Positions 5,835 through 48,046 of a stretch of DNA of 64,000 bases are shown in pieces. The notes under the pieces are model-generated. The model ran no database searches and was not told the DNA's origin. It saw only the letters and a list, made by a program, of their open reading frames with translations. The stretch lies in contig OZ219802.1 in assembly GCA_964291655.2 (NCBI GenBank), positions 2,208,001-2,272,000 on the forward strand, read 5' to 3'. This DNA comes from Chloroflexota bacterium. GTDB lineage: Bacteria; Chloroflexota; UBA11872; VXOZ01. Both the position numbers and the translations under genes were made by a program. How positions within the stretch are numbered: the first letter of the stretch is position 1; every line of letters begins with the position of its first letter.

Positions 5835-5868
5835 CCCTCATCCCGACCCTCTCCCCAGGGTGAAGGAG
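5835..5868. repeat. Degenerate BoxC-like repeat
   Basis: CCCTCATCCCGACCCTCTCCCCAGGGTGAAGGAG. Confidence 0.6.
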
Positions 5869-7818: not shown

Positions 7819-8025
7819 GAGACCTTTGCACAACCCACGCCGGCGCGGAAAAGTCCCCTCTCCCGGCGGGAGAGGGTTAGAGCCTGCCCCGTACTCGATA
7901 CGGGGGTGAGGGGGAGATTCCCGCATTCTGGGAGCTTTTTCCCGCTATTGCACTCCTGTATATCGGTCTTGCTGGTAAAGAGGATGGGGTAAGCAGAAAT
8001 CCCCTCACCCCGGCCCTCTCCCCGA
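7819..8025. repeat. BoxC-doublet MITE (left part), interrupted by IS1182
   Basis: Starts GAGACCTTTGCA; two inverted BoxC arms with an 86-bp spacer; reverse-complement homolog of 47839-48046 and 33208-33438. Confidence 0.8.
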
Positions 8026-29721: not shown

Positions 29722-30986
29722 TGTATAGACCGGGTTGATGGGTAACGCTTGTTCGGGTTGATAGGTTACACCTATAGGCATGGAGAATCTTGCAGCGGGA
29801 GGATGACCATGTCGTGGAAGGTGGAAACGCTTATGTCTGCCCGGGAAGAGTTTATTGCTCTGGCCAATAGTGGCGCGGTGAGAATGAGCGAATTGTGCGG
29901 TCGGTTCAACATCAGCCGCAAGACTGGCTACAAGTGGTTGCGGCGGTACGCGTCGGGGGGAGCGCAGAGCCTGCGTGACCGTTCGCACCGCACGCACACG
30001 TGTCCGCACCGCACGCGCCCGGCGATGGAGGAACGCATCATCGCGCTGCGTCTGGCGCATCCTACGAAGGGCGCCCATGTGCTGCGCAGAATGCTGCAGG
30101 ACCAGGGGCATACCGACGTGCCGGCCAAGAGCACCATCAATGCCATTCTCAAACGCCATGGGCTCATCGATCCAGCCCAGAGCGCCAAGCACACGCCCCA
30201 TGTGCGCTTCGAACGACCCCAGCCCAACGAGCTGTGGCAGATGGACTTCAAGGGACATTTCGTCATGCAGCAGAACCGCTGCCATCCGCTTACCCTCCTG
30301 GACGATCATTCCCGCTTCAACCTAGGTTTACAGGCCTGCGCCAACGAGCGGGGAGAGACGGTTCAAGACCGCCTCACCACTGTCTTTCGGCGCTACGGCC
30401 TGCCCCAGGCCATGCTCATGGATAACGGCTCCCCCTGGGGCAACGACAGTGCCCAGCCTTTTACGCCCCTCACCGTCTGGCTCATGCAGCTGGGCATCAG
30501 CGTGCTCCACAGTAGACCCTATCATCCCCAGACACTCGGCAAGCTGGAACGCTTCCACCGCTCGCTCAAGAGCGAACTGCTGGCAGGAACCAGCTTCACC
30601 GACCTGGAGCACTGCCAGGGCGCCTTCGACACCTGGCGCGACTTCTACAACTTGGAACGCCCCCATCATGCCCTCGATCTCGACACACCCATCACCAGAT
30701 ACACGCCTAGTCCGCGCCCCTTCCCTGAGACGTTGCCTGCCCTCGACTACGCTCCTGACGACCACGTGCGCAGCGTCGATGTCTCCGGTCGCATCTCCTT
30801 CCAGGGCAGACGGCTCCGTGTGGGCAGGGCCTTCACCCACAAACAGGTCGCACTCAGGCCTGCCCAAACCGACGGCATCTGGAACGTGCACTTCTCAATA
30901 CAACGCATCAAAACCATAGACCTCAGAGCACAAAATGTGTAACCTATCAACCCGAACACCTGTTACCTATCAGCCCAGTCTGTACA
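29722..30986 (+). mobile_element. IS481-family insertion sequence, copy 1 (1265 bp)
   Basis: TGT...ACA ends with long imperfect TIRs; 6-bp DR CTCCCC; inside a BoxC hairpin. Confidence 0.95.
29809..30942 (+). CDS. IS481-family transposase
   Basis: MSWK, ISRKTGYKW HTH, PNELWQMDFKG, DDHSRF, MDNGSPW, HPQTLGKLERFH. Confidence 0.95.
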   Translation: MSWKVETLMSAREEFIALANSGAVRMSELCGRFNISRKTGYKWLRRYASGGAQSLRDRSHRTHTCPHRTRPAMEERIIALRLAHPTKGAHVLRRMLQDQGHTDVPAKSTINAILKRHGLIDPAQSAKHTPHVRFERPQPNELWQMDFKGHFVMQQNRCHPLTLLDDHSRFNLGLQACANERGETVQDRLTTVFRRYGLPQAMLMDNGSPWGNDSAQPFTPLTVWLMQLGISVLHSRPYHPQTLGKLERFHRSLKSELLAGTSFTDLEHCQGAFDTWRDFYNLERPHHALDLDTPITRYTPSPRPFPETLPALDYAPDDHVRSVDVSGRISFQGRRLRVGRAFTHKQVALRPAQTDGIWNVHFSIQRIKTIDLRAQNV

Positions 30987-31230: not shown

Positions 31231-31311
31231 CAAGTCTTGTGAGGGCCGCCCCTAAGGAGACCTTTGCATAACTCCGGCCGGAGGCGCAAGAATTACCCCC
31301 TCTCCTTGGGA

Positions 31312-31599
31312 TGTATAGACCGGGTACATGGGTTACACATGTTCGGGCACATAGGTTACACCATAGAACGAGGGGATTTTCGTAGTATGCGATGTCCTTG
31401 CCTTGAAAGTTAGATCCGCTCAATATCCTTATGCACACAGTTTGTTTCTCTGGCACAAGCTGACAGGCTGAAAGTGAGTGCACTGTGTCGCCAGTCTCTT
31501 ATCAAACCCGGACCAACCCAATGCTCTCGTAGGTGTCAATCAGTAAAATGTGTAACCCATGTCCCCGAACAACTGTTACCTATGTCCCCGGTCTGTACA
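31312..31599 (+). mobile_element. Non-autonomous IS481 derivative (mini-1, 288 bp)
   Basis: TGTATAGACCGGG...CCGGTCTGTACA ends; decayed transposase 5' end; imperfect DR TGGGA/GGGGA. Confidence 0.85.
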
Positions 31600-31737
31600 G
31601 GGGAGAGGGTCGGGGTGAGGGGTCTTACCTGCTTTGCTAATCGTAATACATGTACAGTCAATCATTCTAGAACTAATCCGGTCAAGAAGATGCTCATGCT
31701 TAGAGCAATTTCACCCTCACCCTAACCCTCTCCCGTC

Positions 31738-32024
31738 TGTACAGACTGGGCTGATAGGTAACAGGTGTTCGGGTTGATAGGTTACACATTGTACTGATTG
31801 ACACCTTCGGGCGCTTTAGGTTGGGCAGAGAAATAGACGTTCCAGGCACCACGACATACTCATGTTCAGTTCGTGAGCTGGTGCCAGGGGAAAAACCGTA
31901 TCCATAAGGGTATTGAGTTGGTCTAACTTCCATGGCATGGACACTGCATACAACGAAAACTCCCATATTCGATGGTGTAACCTATCAACCCGAACATGTG
32001 TTGCCCATCAACCCGGTCTATACA
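31738..32024 (-). mobile_element. Non-autonomous IS481 derivative (mini-2, 287 bp)
   Basis: Ends nearly identical to the resident IS481; 6-bp DR CCCGTC. Confidence 0.9.
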
Positions 32025-32312
32025 CCCGTCAAGGGAGAGGGGACAATCTACCTACCACATGGATTTTGCAAAAGTCTCCCTTAGGTGATGGGGCAAGCCT
32101 CGCCTCCCGTTCCGGTTGAGCTATGTTCTCCCAAGGCATAAGGTGTCGTTGTGCCCGGTTTCCCTGATCGTGCATGGGTGTGTCTACGGCGACAGCTCAC
32201 TGCACTTCCTATCCATTGCCTCGTGCCTTGAACCGACAGCGCATTTTGCACTATACTGCCTGCGAAGCGTTAGGCAAACTAAAGCGCCGACACATAGGAG
32301 GTCCGAGAGCAA

Positions 32313-33207: not shown

Positions 33208-33438
33208 GCTTTGCTTAACCCCGGCCGGAGACGCAAAGATTACTCCTTCTCCCTGGGGAGAGGGCCGGGGTTAGGGGATGTCTGCGTAAGCCATCATCTT
33301 TACCAGCAAGACCGATACGCAAGAGTACAATAACGGGAAGAGAGCTCCCGGGTTGCGGGAAAATCTTCCCTCACCCTAACCCTCTCCTGCCGGGAGAGGG
33401 GACATCCCCGTCCCGGCAAGGGTATTGCAAAGATCTCC
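33208..33438. repeat. Uninterrupted BoxC-doublet MITE
   Basis: Two inverted BoxC arms (33245-33277, 33368-33401), 90-bp spacer homologous to 7915-8000 and 47864-47951; right end TGCAAAGATCTC. Confidence 0.8.
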
Positions 33439-39707: not shown

Positions 39708-39775
39708 TCCCTCTCCCCGTGAGAGGGCCAGGATGAGGGCACAATCCGTAGGGGCACGATATATCGTGCCCCTAC
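39708..39775. repeat. BoxC-like repeat followed by a GTAG REP (family B)
   Basis: CCCTCTCCCCGTGAGAGGGCCAGGATGAGGG then GTAGGGGCACGATATATCGTGCCCCTAC. Confidence 0.8.
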
Positions 39776-41450: not shown

Positions 41451-41794
41451 CGCTATCTCGACTACCTTTGGCGACGTTCCTTCAAGTGATGTCATTCCGA
41501 GCGCAGCGAGGAATCTAGGGTTCTCGAAAGAGTGTCAAAGGGATTGGCAAGAGAGGCTGGGGACTAACGAGTGGGTAAGAGCCAGCGCATAGTTCTTGAC
41601 CGGAGAGCCTTCTTGCAGTTCTCAGGCGCACGCCTCGGTGTATGTTGAGAACGCTCGTTCTTGACGGTATAATCTCTGCGTGATCTTGCTCTCGAATGAA
41701 GATGGATTCCCGCGTGCGCGGGAATGACGGAAAACGGTGTTCTGATCTCAGAATGATGTCGGACTGTGCGGCTCAAGAGCCGCAGTTAGGAGAC

Positions 41795-42103
41795 ATGGCC
41801 CAGATGCCGATGCGGGAAGAACAAGCGTTGTGGTGTGTGGAGTGGGGCAAGCGCGCCACCGAGGGACGGTACTATCCAGACGGGTACTCGCTGCATACGT
41901 CCTTGGCCGACGCCGAAGAGTATCAGCAGGTCAACCTGACGCGCTCCATGGCCGCCACCCAGTGGCAGGGCGAACCCCGCGTGCTCCTGCGCAAGCCCTA
42001 CCGCTGCCTGGTGCCTGATTGGCAGCACCAGCAGACCCTGGCCAGCGACATCGGCGCCCACTTCAGCGGCGCCTCTCCCATGCCGCTCCCAGAGGCCGGT
42101 TGA
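41795..42103 (+). CDS. Hypothetical protein
   Basis: AGGAG RBS; high GC3 codon usage. Confidence 0.55.
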   Translation: MAQMPMREEQALWCVEWGKRATEGRYYPDGYSLHTSLADAEEYQQVNLTRSMAATQWQGEPRVLLRKPYRCLVPDWQHQQTLASDIGAHFSGASPMPLPEAG

Positions 42104-42252: not shown

Positions 42253-42669
42253 CCCTCTCCCGGGGGAGAGGGCTAGGGTGAGGGCGACTCTTGTACTTGC
42301 CATTCACGTAGGGTAGCATCCAAGACTGCTTCAGTCTGCGTCAGCACCTGATTGTTCCAGAGTCGACCTACGCGAAACCCCTGTGCCTCCGGCCAATCCG
42401 TGCGAACTGAATCCTCTTCTTTGCGAAGCTGACGCTGACCACCATCTATCTCAATCGCCAGGATTCCTTCATAGCGCAGGAAGTCAACAATGTACTTGCC
42501 AAGGTGTGCTTGTCTACGGAATTTGCAGCCGACAAACTGACGACTGTGCAAGTGTCGCTACAGGGCCTTCCCGGCTTCAGTTGAACTCTTCCGGAGATGT
42601 CGGGCCCTTGCAGCGCCTTGCGATGCCATTTTGTTCACCCTCACCCAAACCCTCTCCCCCAGGAGAGGG
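42253..42669. mobile_element. BoxC doublet enclosing a DUF559 endonuclease gene
   Basis: Inverted arms at 42253-42283 and 42638-42669 flank the gene directly. Confidence 0.75.
42273..42629 (-). pseudogene. DUF559/YcjD (Vsr-like) endonuclease pseudogene
   Basis: MASQGAARARHLRKSSTEAGKAL*RHLHSRQFVGCKFRRQAHLGKYIVDF...IEIDGGQR...QGFRVGRLWNNQV; in-frame TAG at 42558-42560 where Trp is expected. Confidence 0.85.
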
Positions 42670-44098: not shown

Positions 44099-44232
44099 AG
44101 TCGCTCCTCAATCTGCATGCGTTGTATGCCACGTAATCATACCAGGCGGGGCGCGTATCCCTTGTTCGCCAGCCATAGGCGAACGATACCGCGTGGGGGC
44201 ATTCATTTTTCCCCTCACCCCAACCCTCTCCC

Positions 44233-45497
44233 TGTACAGACTGGGCTGATAGGTAACAGGTGTTCGGGTTGATAGGTTACACATTTTGTGCTCTGAGGTC
44301 TATGGTTTTGATGCGTTGTATTGAGAAGTGCACGTTCCAGATGCCGTCGGTTTGGGCAGGCCTGAGTGCGACCTGTTTGTGGGTGAAGGCCCTGCCCACA
44401 CGGAGCCGTCTGCCCTGGAAGGAGATGCGACCGGAGACATCGACGCTGCGCACGTGGTCGTCAGGAGCGTAGTCGAGGGCAGGCAACGTCTCAGGGAAGG
44501 GGCGCGGACTAGGCGTGTATCTGGTGATGGGTGTGTCGAGATCGAGGGCATGATGGGGGCGTTCCAAGTTGTAGAAGTCGCGCCAGGTGTCGAAGGCGCC
44601 CTGGCAGTGCTCCAGGTCGGTGAAGCTGGTTCCTGCCAGCAGTTCGCTCTTGAGCGAGCGGTGGAAGCGTTCCAGCTTGCCGAGTGTCTGGGGATGATAG
44701 GGTCTACTGTGGAGCACGCTGATGCCCAGCTGCATGAGCCAGACGGTGAGGGGCGTAAAAGGCTGGGCACTGTCGTTGCCCCAGGGGGAGCCGTTATCCA
44801 TGAGCATGGCCTGGGGCAGGCCGTAGCGCCGAAAGACAGTGGTGAGGCGGTCTTGAACCGTCTCTCCCCGCTCGTTGGCGCAGGCCTGTAAACCTAGGTT
44901 GAAGCGGGAATGATCGTCCAGGAGGGTAAGCGGATGGCAGCGGTTCTGCTGCATGACGAAATGTCCCTTGAAGTCCATCTGCCACAGCTCGTTGGGCTGG
45001 GGTCGTTCGAAGCGCACATGGGGCGTGTGCTTGGCGCTCTGGGCTGGATCGATGAGCCCATGGCGTTTGAGAATGGCATTGATGGTGCTCTTGGCCGGCA
45101 CGTCGGTATGCCCCTGGTCCTGCAGCATTCTGCGCAGCACATGGGCGCCCTTCGTAGGATGCGCCAGACGCAGCGCGATGATGCGTTCCTCCATCGCCGG
45201 GCGCGTGCGGTGCGGACACGTGTGCGTGCGGTGCGAACGGTCACGCAGGCTCTGCGCTCCCCCCGACGCGTACCGCCGCAACCACTTGTAGCCAGTCTTG
45301 CGGCTGATGTTGAACCGACCGCACAATTCGCTCATTCTCACCGCGCCACTATTGGCCAGAGCAATAAACTCTTCCCGGGCAGACATAAGCGTTTCCACCT
45401 TCCACGACATGGTCATCCTCCCGCTGCAAGATTCTCCATGCCTATAGGTGTAACCTATCAACCCGAACAAGCGTTACCCATCAACCCGGTCTATACA
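44233..45497 (-). mobile_element. IS481-family insertion sequence, copy 2 (1265 bp)
   Basis: Reverse complement of 29722-30986; 5-bp DR CTCCC; inside a BoxC hairpin. Confidence 0.95.
44277..45410 (-). CDS. IS481-family transposase
   Basis: Protein identical to 29809..30942. Confidence 0.95.
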   Translation of the reverse strand: MSWKVETLMSAREEFIALANSGAVRMSELCGRFNISRKTGYKWLRRYASGGAQSLRDRSHRTHTCPHRTRPAMEERIIALRLAHPTKGAHVLRRMLQDQGHTDVPAKSTINAILKRHGLIDPAQSAKHTPHVRFERPQPNELWQMDFKGHFVMQQNRCHPLTLLDDHSRFNLGLQACANERGETVQDRLTTVFRRYGLPQAMLMDNGSPWGNDSAQPFTPLTVWLMQLGISVLHSRPYHPQTLGKLERFHRSLKSELLAGTSFTDLEHCQGAFDTWRDFYNLERPHHALDLDTPITRYTPSPRPFPETLPALDYAPDDHVRSVDVSGRISFQGRRLRVGRAFTHKQVALRPAQTDGIWNVHFSIQRIKTIDLRAQNV

Positions 45498-45640
45498 CTC
45501 CCCCAGGAGAGGGAACGGAAACGGCGCTGCTGGGGTGAATGCTCCCCTCACCCTAACCCTCTCCCCGAGGAGAGGGAACGGAAGCCGCGCTGCTGGAGTG
45601 AATGCCCCCTCAATCTAACCCTCTCCCGCTAGGAGAAGGT
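45498..45640. repeat. Three tandem BoxC units (~62-bp period)
   Basis: GGAGAGGGAACGGAA.C.GCGCTGCTGG.GTGAATGC.CCCCTCA..CTAACCCTCTCCC repeated. Confidence 0.8.
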
Positions 45641-45785: not shown

Positions 45786-47588
45786 TCATAGATTTGCTAA
45801 GGAACACTCCTGCCAAGGCGATCTTGTCCCCTCTCCCAGCGGAGAACCTTGCGTAACCTTAGTGGAAGCAACAGCGTTCCCTCTCCCTCGACGGGAGAGG
45901 GCTAGGGTGAGGGTGAATCTCCTGCAATCGCTACATTTGCACACCGACTCTGCCCTGATACGTCTTGACACTGCCCAGCGTATAGTGCCATTGTAGCAAG
46001 TAGACCCCCTCACCCCAACCCTCTCCCCCAGAGGCTGTCTCAATATTTTGGTGCGGGGCACGGTGAATGGGGTGAGAAGGACAGACAGATGGCGGGTGGT
46101 ATGAACAAGACGGTGCCAGTGAGAGACTCGTCCCCGGGGCGACGCTGGACTACACCCAGACCGCCACAGGGCGTGGAGGCTCTTGAGATTGAACGCGGTG
46201 GCCAGCAGGTGCCATTCGGACGTCACGTGGCTGCGGCCTCTGAGCAGGAAGCGCCTGGCACTGTGCCACTCCTTGAGCAGGCCAAAGACCGGCTCGACGA
46301 TGGTACTCCGGCGGCGGTACACCTGCTTGGCAGGCGCGGTGGCCATCAACTGCCTGTGCCGTTGCAGTATTGGCTCGTAGGCGCTGATCTTTATGGAGCG
46401 GCCCCTCTGGGAGGAGGTGCAGACGCCGAAGGCCGGACAGGTTCTGCAGTCCCGGCCGTTGGCTTGGTACCGCTTGACCCGGTAGCCGTTGCTGTGGGTC
46501 AAGCGGTGCGTGTAGGTGAGCACCTTTTGCTGGGGACACAGGTAGGTGTCGGTCTCTGGACGGTAGGTGAAGTGGTCTTTATGGTAGGGGTTGCGGCGTC
46601 TGCGCTCGTGGGTCGTGGGCATCAATACCGTGTGGCCGCCGGCGTGGCACGTGGCGAGGTTGGCCCCCGAATGGTAGCCGGCGTCCGCAACGGTCACCAC
46701 GTCCCGCGCGGCGTCGATGTTCTCCTGCGCCGCCTCGATCAGCGGCGCCAGGTGGGGATGGTCGTCGGCACTGGCGCTCACGTCCACGGCTGTGATCAAC
46801 CTCCCCCCTGCGCCCTCGTCCGGGGACGCAAGAGGGGAGACCAGCGCCTGGGCGTTGTAGCCGGTGATGAAGCCACCCATGCCAGTCTTGAGCAGGGCCG
46901 CGTCCGCATCAGTCAGGTTCGTGTAGCGCGGCCCGTCCTCAGCCGCGACGCGGGCGAGCGCGTCGTCCACCCGCCGCCGCAGGGCCTGGGCATCGGCAAG
47001 TTCCTGCGGCAAAGTCGCTGGCGGCGCGTCGCCCCCCGTGGCGTTCTGCGCCTCCAGGTCCGCGATCGCTTGCTCGGTGCGGGACAACAGCCGCTGCAGC
47101 CCCTGCGCGTCGTGGGTATGCCGCGTCCCGGCGTTGGCCGCGATCCTGGTGCCGTCCACCGCCTGGATTGCCAACTCCACCAGGCCGGCTCGCACCGCCG
47201 TGCGCACCGTGCGCTTGAGCAGCGTCCGCATCCGGTCGCGGTGCGCCTTGTAGAAGCGCCACAGCGTGTTGTGGTCCGGCTGCTGCATCCCCACCAGCCA
47301 CAGGTACGGTACCTGATCCCGGCAGGCTGCCTCCAGCTTGCGGCTCGAGCGCACGCCGGTCATGAAGCCGTAGACCCATACGCCCAGCAGCGCGCGCGGA
47401 TGGTAGGCCCCGGCGCCACGCGGATCGCCTTGCAGGTCAATCTCCATCGCCTCCCAGGCCGCAGCATCGAGGCTGTCCACGAACGCTGCCGCAAACCTGA
47501 CAGGATGGTCGTCCGGGATCAGTTCGTCCAGCGTCGGCGGCAACAGCCAGGCCTGTTCACGACTAAACGGTCTCAACGGCATCGTCAC
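45786..47588 (-). CDS. IS1182-family transposase (reads through the IS end)
   Basis: Identical to 7877..9583 up to KILRQP. Confidence 0.92.
   Translation of the reverse strand: MTMPLRPFSREQAWLLPPTLDELIPDDHPVRFAAAFVDSLDAAAWEAMEIDLQGDPRGAGAYHPRALLGVWVYGFMTGVRSSRKLEAACRDQVPYLWLVGMQQPDHNTLWRFYKAHRDRMRTLLKRTVRTAVRAGLVELAIQAVDGTRIAANAGTRHTHDAQGLQRLLSRTEQAIADLEAQNATGGDAPPATLPQELADAQALRRRVDDALARVAAEDGPRYTNLTDADAALLKTGMGGFITGYNAQALVSPLASPDEGAGGRLITAVDVSASADDHPHLAPLIEAAQENIDAARDVVTVADAGYHSGANLATCHAGGHTVLMPTTHERRRRNPYHKDHFTYRPETDTYLCPQQKVLTYTHRLTHSNGYRVKRYQANGRDCRTCPAFGVCTSSQRGRSIKISAYEPILQRHRQLMATAPAKQVYRRRSTIVEPVFGLLKEWHSARRFLLRGRSHVTSEWHLLATAFNLKSLHALWRSGCSPASPRGRVSHWHRLVHTTRHLSVLLTPFTVPRTKILRQPLGERVGVRGSTCYNGTIRWAVSRRIRAESVCKCSDCRRFTLTLALSRRGRGNAVASTKVTQGSPLGEGTRSPWQECSLANL
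45842..46030. repeat. BoxC-doublet MITE (left part), interrupted by IS1182 copy 2
   Basis: GAGAACCTTGCGTAAC end; arms 45879-45913 and 46005-46030; 91-bp spacer. Confidence 0.75.
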
Positions 47589-47838: not shown

Positions 47839-48046
47839 TTGGGAAGAGGGCTGGGGTGAGGGGACTTCTGCTTACCCCATCCTCTTTACGGGCAAGACCG
47901 ATACGCAAGAGTGCAATAACGGTAAAAAGCTCCCAGAATTCGGGAATTTCTCCCTCACCCCCGTATCGAGCACGGGGCAGGCTTTTACCCTCTCCCGCCG
48001 GGAGAGGGGGCTTTCCCGCCCCAGCGAGGGTAATGCAAGGGTCTTC
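47839..48046. repeat. BoxC-doublet MITE (right part)
   Basis: Reverse-complement homolog of 7819-8025; ends TGCAAGGGTCTTC. Confidence 0.8.

Follow-up and report, generated by a model that had tools for sequence, protein, structure and literature searches.

The question raised by this locus is why a small nuclease gene stands exactly between two inverted copies of a dispersed repeat. The window, that is the whole 64-kb stretch of contig OZ219802.1 from a Chloroflexota bacterium, whose coordinates count from its first base, contains a pseudogene of the DUF559 family flanked by two repeat arms of the BoxC/TM type. The answer proposed here is that a conserved unit, about 420 bp long, has decayed at this locus, and that in this unit the DUF559 protein would be the cognate partner of the arms and would drive their spread and turnover; a probability of roughly 0.55 is attached to this reading. 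It builds on a coupling of gene and arms that is specific to DUF559, spread over many phyla and evolutionarily maintained. The three features concerned are the following:

42273..42629, minus strand: DUF559 pseudogene (YcjD-like, Vsr-type PD-(D/E)XK), found with PF04480, the homologue alignment and tblastn
42253..42284, plus strand: BoxC/TM arm at the 3' end of the DUF559 gene, found with the pattern, core and variant-tolerant arm searches
42638..42669, minus strand: BoxC/TM arm at the 5' end of the DUF559 gene, inverted with respect to the other arm, found with the same searches

The DUF559 pseudogene and its two arms

Regarding the gene, its minus-strand frame starts with an ATG at 42629-42627 and runs over 119 codons to the end ..QESPSP*, with the stop codon TAG at 42273-42275; a premature in-frame TAG occupies codon 24 (42558-42560). 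The read-through translation matches Pfam PF04480 with an E value of 1.6e-31 over profile positions 4-107 of 109, it reaches 74% identity over 114 residues by tblastn, and a homologue search with it returned 3299 near-length relatives. The column of codon 24 is Trp in at least 90% of 32 aligned homologues, where the window copy has TAG, and residue 66 (codon 42432-42434) is Arg in the window copy and His in at least 90% of the same homologues (DGGQH); the family motif E-x-D-G-x-x-H (E-x-D-G-G-Q-H) is conserved among the homologues, and the window copy departs from it at the His. The window copy, which has stopped early and no longer has the catalytic His, is a dead member of the family, as the preliminary description of this DNA had held. 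The closest database protein (90% identity), from a Chloroflexi metagenome-assembled genome (MAG), also has Arg66 and has lost the Trp by a different change, which suggests that catalysis in this lineage was probably lost before the TAG arose. In Pfam, the protein of the unit matched only PF04480 and, weakly, REase_MTES_1575, with no DDE and no HUH/Y1 transposase among the matches.

As for the arms, the left one (42253-42284, plus strand) reads CCCTCTCCC GG GGGAGAGGG CTA GGGTGAGGG; on the gene strand it encodes the terminal ..SPSP, followed by the TAG stop codon of the gene, which corresponds to the CTA loop. In the right arm (42638-42669, minus strand) the G-rich third segment GGGTGAGGG stops 8 nt short of the ATG and so occupies the Shine-Dalgarno position. 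Hence the layout first described, a gene between two inverted arms of which one supplies the stop and the other ends just before the start codon, was found again in full. The general form of the arm in the window is CCCTCTCCC-loop-GGGAGAGGG-NNN-GGGTGAGGG, and it is far more frequent than chance would have it: the hairpin pattern had 4 matches against 0.00 expected, GGGTGAGGG had 14 against 0.67, and the 21-nt arm core, searched with up to 3 mismatches, had 17 against 0.08, a number that none of 100 shuffles reached.

This arm is the Escherichia coli BoxC element, later named PIT and then TM(ECO), a purine-motif intrastrand triplex sequence. The 21-nt core GGGAGAGGG-TTA-GGGTGAGGG is matched letter for letter in this window and in the BoxC between fabI and ycjD of E. 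coli MG1655, so the resemblance to BoxC suspected at the outset is an identity over that core. The pattern published for TM(ECO) in the article text of Holder et al. 2015 (PMC4666352), CCCTCNCCC N3-6 GGGNGAGGG N3 GGGNGAGGG, fits both window arms, with the exception that the first loop of the left arm has 2 nt if the stems are taken as 9 nt.

The same article text (PMC4666352) is the source for the history and properties of the element. BoxC/PIT/TM dates from the early 1990s, with papers of 1991 and 1992 cited there, and BoxC itself is traced to the envM (= fabI) paper of Bergler 1992; the E. coli sequence forms a triplex in vitro, according to circular dichroism, nuclear magnetic resonance and melting data, and Hoyne and Maher (2000, 2002) are cited for elements without promoter or terminator activity. 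MG1655 has 23 TM copies, five of them as inverted doublets; copy number differs strongly among strains, with 29 motifs in E. coli 55989, 1 in IHE3034 and none in Salmonella, and variability is raised around the sites. In that text the range of the motif is proteobacteria, cyanobacteria having related G/C-rich motifs, and no transposase, integrase or other mobility function is reported near it. The arms described here are like the E. coli ones in forming inverted doublets, and in that the second loop differs between the two arms of a doublet; they differ from those of the earlier work in their range, from Chloroflexota to Legionella, in having at least 20 purine-stem variants, and in being tied to one gene family. 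A full-text literature search, with subscription journals and the supplement of PMC4666352 outside its scope, found no report linking DUF559/YcjD with BoxC/TM.

The gene and its arms across bacteria

For the comparison, species-representative genomes were scanned with the 32-homologue alignment and with two protein patterns lying inside the domain, so that arms played no part in the choice of loci; the four-residue SPSP tail of the query is encoded by an arm, and the upstream arm lay outside the query. The locus set consists of the best 80 of 582 DUF559 relatives; 63 loci have a phylum label, and among these 11 named phyla occur, the set including Chloroflexota, Thermodesulfobacteriota, Nitrospirota, Pseudomonadota (with Legionella), Planctomycetota, Elusimicrobiota and Acidobacteriota. 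Arms were called with a variant-tolerant detector, which required an 8-nt pyrimidine stem, a loop, the complementary purine stem, a second loop and a mirror third segment, each with at most 1 mismatch.

An inward-facing arm lay within 150 bp upstream of 59/80 DUF559 genes and at or after the stop codon of 59/80; 51/80 had arms on both sides and 67/80 had at least one. Away from the gene, the background was 72 arms in 1,041,534 bp, equivalent to about 0.0055 expected per gene side. Among 738 control open reading frames (ORFs) in the same loci, 12 had an upstream arm, 18 a downstream arm and 1 both (Fisher p ~1e-59), and the single control with both arms turned out to be a second DUF559 paralogue; the enrichment that the preliminary description had predicted for DUF559 genes is therefore present. 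Several of the 13 loci scored as armless visibly carry arms with inserts in a loop, which makes the true armed fraction higher than the detector count. Both arms also occur in isolate genomes and not only in MAGs, as in Dongia, Variovorax, Sphingopyxis and two Luteimonas species, and a plasmid collection adds Cyanobacteriota (with short CCCCC-type arms), Deinococcota, Neisseria and Azospirillum; five of six loci from that collection have arms or remnants of them, and the sixth, a truncated copy from Pseudomonas aeruginosa, has none.

The anatomy of the unit is likewise recurrent. The length from arm to arm is mostly 390-440 bp, and the inverted repeat ends at the outer edge of the hairpin. The end of the upstream arm falls between -7 and 14 nt from the start codon in 38/56 cases, mostly at 0-14 nt, so that the G-rich third segment lies at the Shine-Dalgarno position; at the other end, the stop codon is within or past the downstream arm in 34/44 cases, and exactly at the second loop in 7. 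By this placement, the upstream arm supplies the ribosome-binding region, and the downstream arm overlaps the end of the ORF. A proline-rich tail occurs in 51/118 proteins with the core motif, because the ORF runs into the downstream arm.

A perfect 8-bp pyrimidine/purine hairpin was present on 127/160 gene sides, and in 92 of these 127 it was followed by the exact mirror of its own purine stem; when the tails were scored against the stems of other variants, 213/2413 (9%) matched. Where the stem is not mirror-symmetric, so that the two cases can be told apart, the third segment was mirror-only 43 times and direct-copy-only 0 times. This geometry, a pyrimidine/purine hairpin plus a mirror third segment, reads as the signature of an intrastrand purine-motif triplex. 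A mirror repeat suits a triplex and not an alternative Watson-Crick hairpin, and these counts point to selection on the structure of the arm. Between syntenic orthologues, the arms have stayed intact while the synonymous sites of the gene are near saturation.

Arms are also found away from the gene, and they resemble those of the gene at their own locus: 32/69 background arms are identical over 16 nt to the gene arms of the same locus, against 13% for those of other loci, and 0/2000 permutations equalled this. In the 80 loci and the window there are 27 gene-less convergent arm pairs, with spacers of 7-95 bp, and tandem arrays of doublets composed of two arm types adjoin the DUF559 genes of loci L010 and L078. 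The array in L010 (9851-11343) comprises seven doublets with a period of ~146 bp directly 3' of the gene, with one more doublet just upstream; each of these doublets pairs two different arm variants, and their hairpins point towards the gene that they enclose, so that the usual layout is reversed.

Several loci hold two DUF559 copies. In 4/4 diverged co-resident paralogue pairs, the two genes have different arm variants. A divergent subtype (..QFYRQK..YIVDFYCP..LRFSDR..; L016 3974-4342 and L054 10568-10867) co-resides with the common one, and its own unusual arm, CTCCCCCTTT-GAA-AAAGGGGGA.., is common to two MAGs titled Nitrospirota and Deltaproteobacteria. Mapped on the protein tree, the coarse arm class requires 13 changes, against 23.6 after shuffling, and 0/500 shuffles reached 13; fine-grained classes (23, noisy) gave no such separation, with 46 changes against 51.6 and a lowest shuffle of 46. 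Second copies or 3'-end fragments stand beside intact genes in L007 (an identical tandem copy), L019, L038 and E. coli.

Concerning inheritance, seven syntenic locus pairs, such as Luteimonas/Lysobacter and Novosphingobium/Sphingopyxis, have neighbouring genes in common across species or genera, either on both flanks or markedly on a single flank. The ratio of nonsynonymous to synonymous substitution rates (dN/dS) is 0.09-0.20 in 7/8 pairs compared, with dS at 0.46-1.97, and the gene was found in 39 of 72,556 plasmid records, several of them chromosome-sized. Given synteny, low dN/dS and rarity on plasmids, the profile is that of a resident, selected gene, as described for the transposases known as REP-associated tyrosine transposases (RAYTs; REP, repetitive extragenic palindromic sequence), and not of a fast-moving element.

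Other arms in the window and the Escherichia coli loci

Besides the two arms of the gene, the window contains gene-less arms in several arrangements:

5835..5855, minus strand: solo arm core, 1 mismatch
7856..8022, no strand: gene-less inverted doublet, 89-bp spacer; left arm with a small insert in its second loop
29700..29720, minus strand: solo arm core, hairpin loop interrupted by a 1265-bp IS481-family element
31296..32042, no strand: gene-less doublet, 92-bp spacer; inner arms at 31601-31621 and 31714-31734
33245..33401, no strand: gene-less inverted doublet, 91-bp spacer
39719..39739, plus strand: solo arm core, 2 mismatches
44212..44232, minus strand: solo arm core, loop interrupted by a second copy of the IS481-family element
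45498..45636, minus strand: short tandem array of arms, 63-bp period, 2.2 copies
45879..46027, no strand: gene-less inverted doublet, 93-bp spacer, sequence unlike the other spacers
47842..48008, no strand: gene-less inverted doublet, 89-bp spacer; of the 7856-8022 family, in opposite orientation

The five doublets had been described before with spacers of 86-91 bp; their existence, their orientation and the nested inserts at 31296-32042 stand, and the spacers, when counted from the GGGTGAGGG coordinates, are instead 89, 92, 91, 93 and 89 bp, that is 89-93 bp. Spacer length is conserved, and spacer sequence is common only to the copies at 7856-8022 and 47842-48008. These two doublets also have in common a small GC-rich insert (..GCCTGCCCCGTACTCGATACGGGG..) in the second loop of one arm (7877-7903 and 47963-47987), which forms a short hairpin of its own.

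A second element family uses the same arms. Two 1265-bp IS481-family insertion sequences (29722-30986 and 44233-45497), with identical 397-aa transposases (domains rve, HTH and LZ_Tnp_IS481), both interrupt a BoxC arm precisely at its hairpin loop, and in the doublet at 31296-32042 each hairpin loop is split by an insert of ~290 bp with the terminal inverted repeat of that element. These miniatures (31306-31599 and 31738-32024) carry its terminal repeat (TGTACAGACCGGG..), and the terminal-repeat pattern has 7 matches in the window against 0 expected. Because the miniatures sit in both hairpin loops of one doublet, the family targets the arm loop specifically; it is a parasite of the arms with a DDE transposase, separate from the DUF559 system. 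Of the remaining DNA, a 135-aa ORF at 41696-42103, between an aldehyde dehydrogenase gene and the DUF559 unit, had no Pfam match, and an Rfam scan of the window gave tRNA as its sole match.

In E. coli, ycjD (annotated as DUF559) has fabI and sapF as its neighbours, and a BoxC arm separates it from fabI; its position beside fabI, as given in the preliminary description, is thereby confirmed. Against the best of four family queries, YcjD shows 54% identity across 104 residues. The gene of strains WL297 and 3347558 terminates within a canonical downstream arm whose hairpin loop contains the stop codon, and in MG1655 this 3' arm has lost 12 nt, which fits a 12-nt difference in length already noted in print. 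Downstream of ycjD there is a second DUF559 3'-end fragment with a decayed arm, followed by the classic fabI BoxC. The locus in this way follows the gene-arm pattern, in decayed form.

Loss of 12 nt is recurrent: it drops the third segment of an arm and its loop and leaves a plain hairpin (L001 5395-5420; L088, L089; L094), and besides the MG1655 ycjD 3' arm it was seen at the pstA-pstB arm of strain GF66.1. Slippage between two CCCTC..CCC blocks is its probable origin.

The ycjD locus is present in 3377/5426 complete E. coli genomes. As described in a study of this site, the gene is found in phylogroups A, B1 and C and in two sequence types, and it alternates with eefRABCD, being absent from eef-carrying lineages such as B2, an alternation for which its authors require at least two events. 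In a sample of 60 records, BoxC megablast places averaged 4.46 in the 39 genomes with ycjD, where one place is the ycjD locus itself, and 1.95 in the 21 without it. A link between BoxC copy number and DUF559 is accordingly seen in the expected direction; the correlation is weak, confounded by phylogroup and built on few independent events.

Empty and filled sites, the other comparison suggested beforehand, do exist in E. coli, and a boundary repeat is seen at one of them only. At pstA-pstB, a 92-bp arm-bearing insert is flanked by the 8-bp direct repeat ACACGGTT (L091 877-980 against L092 and L093), with strains E2348/69 and HB-Coli0 having the empty site; a third copy of ACACGGTT inside the insert complicates its boundaries. 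The hrpB-mrcB doublet is absent in some strains, with no clean repeat or boundaries; the MG1655 form (L096 448-532) is collapsed in N5D43 (L098) to a CCCTCTCCC-TGT-GGGAGAGGG hairpin, through a 64-bp loss between two direct GGGAGAGGG blocks. A length variant at tusA-zntA (L095 425-600) was considered as a filled/empty arm site and rejected, as it is an ordinary REP insertion: in some strains, a classic cluster of ~167 bp, made of REPs in a bacterial interspersed mosaic element (BIME), lies a few bases from the BoxC arm.

A nuclease as the proposed partner of the repeat, the rival readings and the meaning

In the proposed mechanism, the DUF559 protein would recognise the folded arm, by shape more than by exact sequence, and would nick or cut at it; this nicking would drive or maintain the spread and duplication of arms, the growth and collapse of arrays, their turnover and local instability. 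As the enzyme can do no more than hydrolyse DNA, the copying itself would fall to host repair, recombination or replication, with no covalent cut-and-rejoin step. The relationship would be like that of RAYTs with REPs and REP doublets (REPINs), with low copy number, mostly vertical inheritance and selection acting on the protein. As the window gene is dead, the local arms are either relics or served by another DUF559 copy elsewhere in the genome. Taken jointly, the exclusivity of DUF559, the mirror constraint, the occurrence of like arm variants without a gene and the purifying selection at fixed loci are explained better by this partnership than by any rival.

Several observations weigh against it. 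Strand transfer is beyond a PD-(D/E)XK hydrolase acting alone, as is the rejoining of DNA that HUH enzymes perform; the window copy of the gene is dead although arms are dense there (17 in 64 kb); and no target-site duplication beyond chance was found at 51 units. In 14/51 units the gene has arms of two different coarse classes, so there is no tight code from protein to sequence, and recognition, if any, would be of shape rather than of strict sequence. The layout is reversed, with the hairpins next to the gene, in L010 and on a Deinococcus plasmid. The 80 loci are top-scoring relatives and kin by descent, not 80 independent events, so their count measures maintenance and not 80 separate origins. 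E. coli lineages without ycjD nonetheless have arms: O157-type genomes lacking the gene keep 3 places, and the tusA-zntA arm stretch was matched at 80% or more in 5413/5426 genomes, the arm itself being seen in the two that were aligned. The filled/empty comparisons disagree with each other, one site having an 8-bp repeat and the other none that is clean. Finally, the sole functional study found, on the DUF559 protein VsrA of Caulobacter, links it with damage at unmethylated cytosine-methylase sites and with the SOS response, not with repeats.

The rival that survives best, although it is unlikely, regards DUF559 as a selfish homing-type gene that invaded pre-existing arms or doublets, the arms being its target and something else spreading them. 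The clade that DUF559 shares with Vsr includes the proven homing endonuclease I-Bth0305I; second copies and 3' fragments stand beside intact genes, ycjD is present in 3377/5426 E. coli genomes in an alternation with eefRABCD that, according to the authors of that study, takes at least two events, and gene-less doublets could be empty sites. On the other side, orthologues occupy syntenic places in different genera, where dS is saturating and dN/dS is 0.09-0.20, which is unusual for a homing gene; copy number appears low, and the gene is rare on plasmids; the arms double as the translation start region and the stop of the gene, which points to long co-adaptation and not to recent invasion, and the window doublet spacers, aligned to each other in a single test, have no remnant of a common target. 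The unit has neither intron nor intein; gene-less doublets might be empty targets, and no filled/empty site pair for the gene itself was found in the comparisons made.

A less probable explanation still is that the arms are a mere expression cassette, providing ribosome-binding site, stop or terminator and insulation for a potentially toxic, Vsr-like repair nuclease, the job of the protein being the processing of mismatches or damage. Such a cassette would suit the stop codons within arms and the distance of 0-14 nt between arm end and start codon, and it would suit Caulobacter VsrA, so far the one experimental lead, a protein induced in the SOS response and connected with a cytosine methylase. 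Yet 0 of the non-DUF559 control ORFs carry the cassette, the same arm variants exist gene-less in solo, doublet and array form, a plain terminator would have no use for the conserved mirror third segment, and the lack of promoter and terminator activity seen by Hoyne and Maher, as cited in PMC4666352, does not favour it either.

It is very improbable that recombination between the inverted arms flips the gene and so switches it on or off. A cross-bacterial survey does list DUF559 as 14-fold enriched among predicted targets of programmed inversion; this signal may merely reflect the inverted arms, gene-less arms would be left unexplained, and the upstream arm gives a ribosome-binding site in one orientation only, the two ends being functionally different. 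As for coincidence, that is arms inserting in many intergenic spaces until a small gene lies by chance between two, the density of 17 arms in the window would favour it, and the counts of 51/80 against 1/738 over many phyla, with the background arm rate, reject it.

Returning to the partnership of nuclease and arms, the idea put forward in the preliminary description, that DUF559 is a non-HUH counterpart of RAYT, holds for the layout and fails for the mechanism, as a hydrolase cannot rejoin DNA. In both systems, inverted copies of a repeat dispersed in the genome frame one small gene, gene-less inverted doublets occur, and tandem arrays of two arm types recall BIME arrays; both also have conserved position in relatives, purifying selection and no evident target-site duplication, and the copy number of DUF559 appears low as well, with two copies at several loci. 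They differ in the enzyme, DUF559 being a Vsr-type PD-(D/E)XK hydrolase (PF04480) with no covalent rejoining intermediate and not an HUH/Y1 protein of IS200/IS605-like type, and in the repeat, which is here a hairpin with a mirror third segment (triplex-type) and in REPs a plain palindrome with a GTAG-type cleavage site. The activity of RAYTs on REPs has been shown in vitro, whereas an action of DUF559 on arms is proposed here from sequence.

Other known systems are more distant. Insertion sequences such as IS1397 and ISKpn1 target the hairpin loops of REPs, and the IS481-family element of the window, with its miniatures, is similar to them in sitting exactly in arm hairpin loops. The DUF559 unit has the inverted arms of an insertion sequence or of a miniature inverted-repeat transposable element; it has no DDE or HUH transposase, and target duplication at its 51 tested examples did not exceed chance. 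With Vsr and the EDxHD homing endonucleases, DUF559 has in common the fold clade, which unites it with Vsr and I-Bth0305I, and the E-x-D-G-x-x-H motif, an intact DUF559 homologue matching PDB 3hrl ('endonuclease-like protein') with an E value of 6e-30; Vsr is tied to a cytosine methylase and I-Bth0305I resides in a phage intron, whereas the DUF559 genes described here stand alone between repeat arms.

A broader proposal, which is tentative and has somewhat less than even odds, is that DUF559/YcjD and BoxC/TM form a second, independent, bacteria-wide partnership of RAYT-REPIN type, in which a vertically inherited Vsr-fold nuclease would recognise folded triplex or H-DNA instead of a sequence and would cause both the spread of the repeat and the local instability of the genome.

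In conclusion, the link concerns two sides that have long been described apart. The biophysics of BoxC/PIT/TM is known, and the element is without an assigned protein, mobility function or origin, a point on which the article text of PMC4666352 is explicit; DUF559 is a very large family without an agreed function, and each side is now given a testable partner. Arm-encoded ends explain the proline-rich tails and Gly-rich heads of many DUF559 proteins, and the inverted arms may explain the enrichment of the family among predicted inversion targets. For E. coli, the link suggests a function for ycjD in K-12 and offers an enzyme candidate for the genome instability at TM loci; if the proposal is true, a nuclease would account for an instability for which the repeat itself has long been blamed. 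Few known self-contained combinations of repeat and enzyme would then be as small as the ~420-bp arm-gene-arm unit, and bacterial chromosomes would have a second type of long-lived repeat-enzyme pair, with a different fold and a non-B-DNA recognition element.

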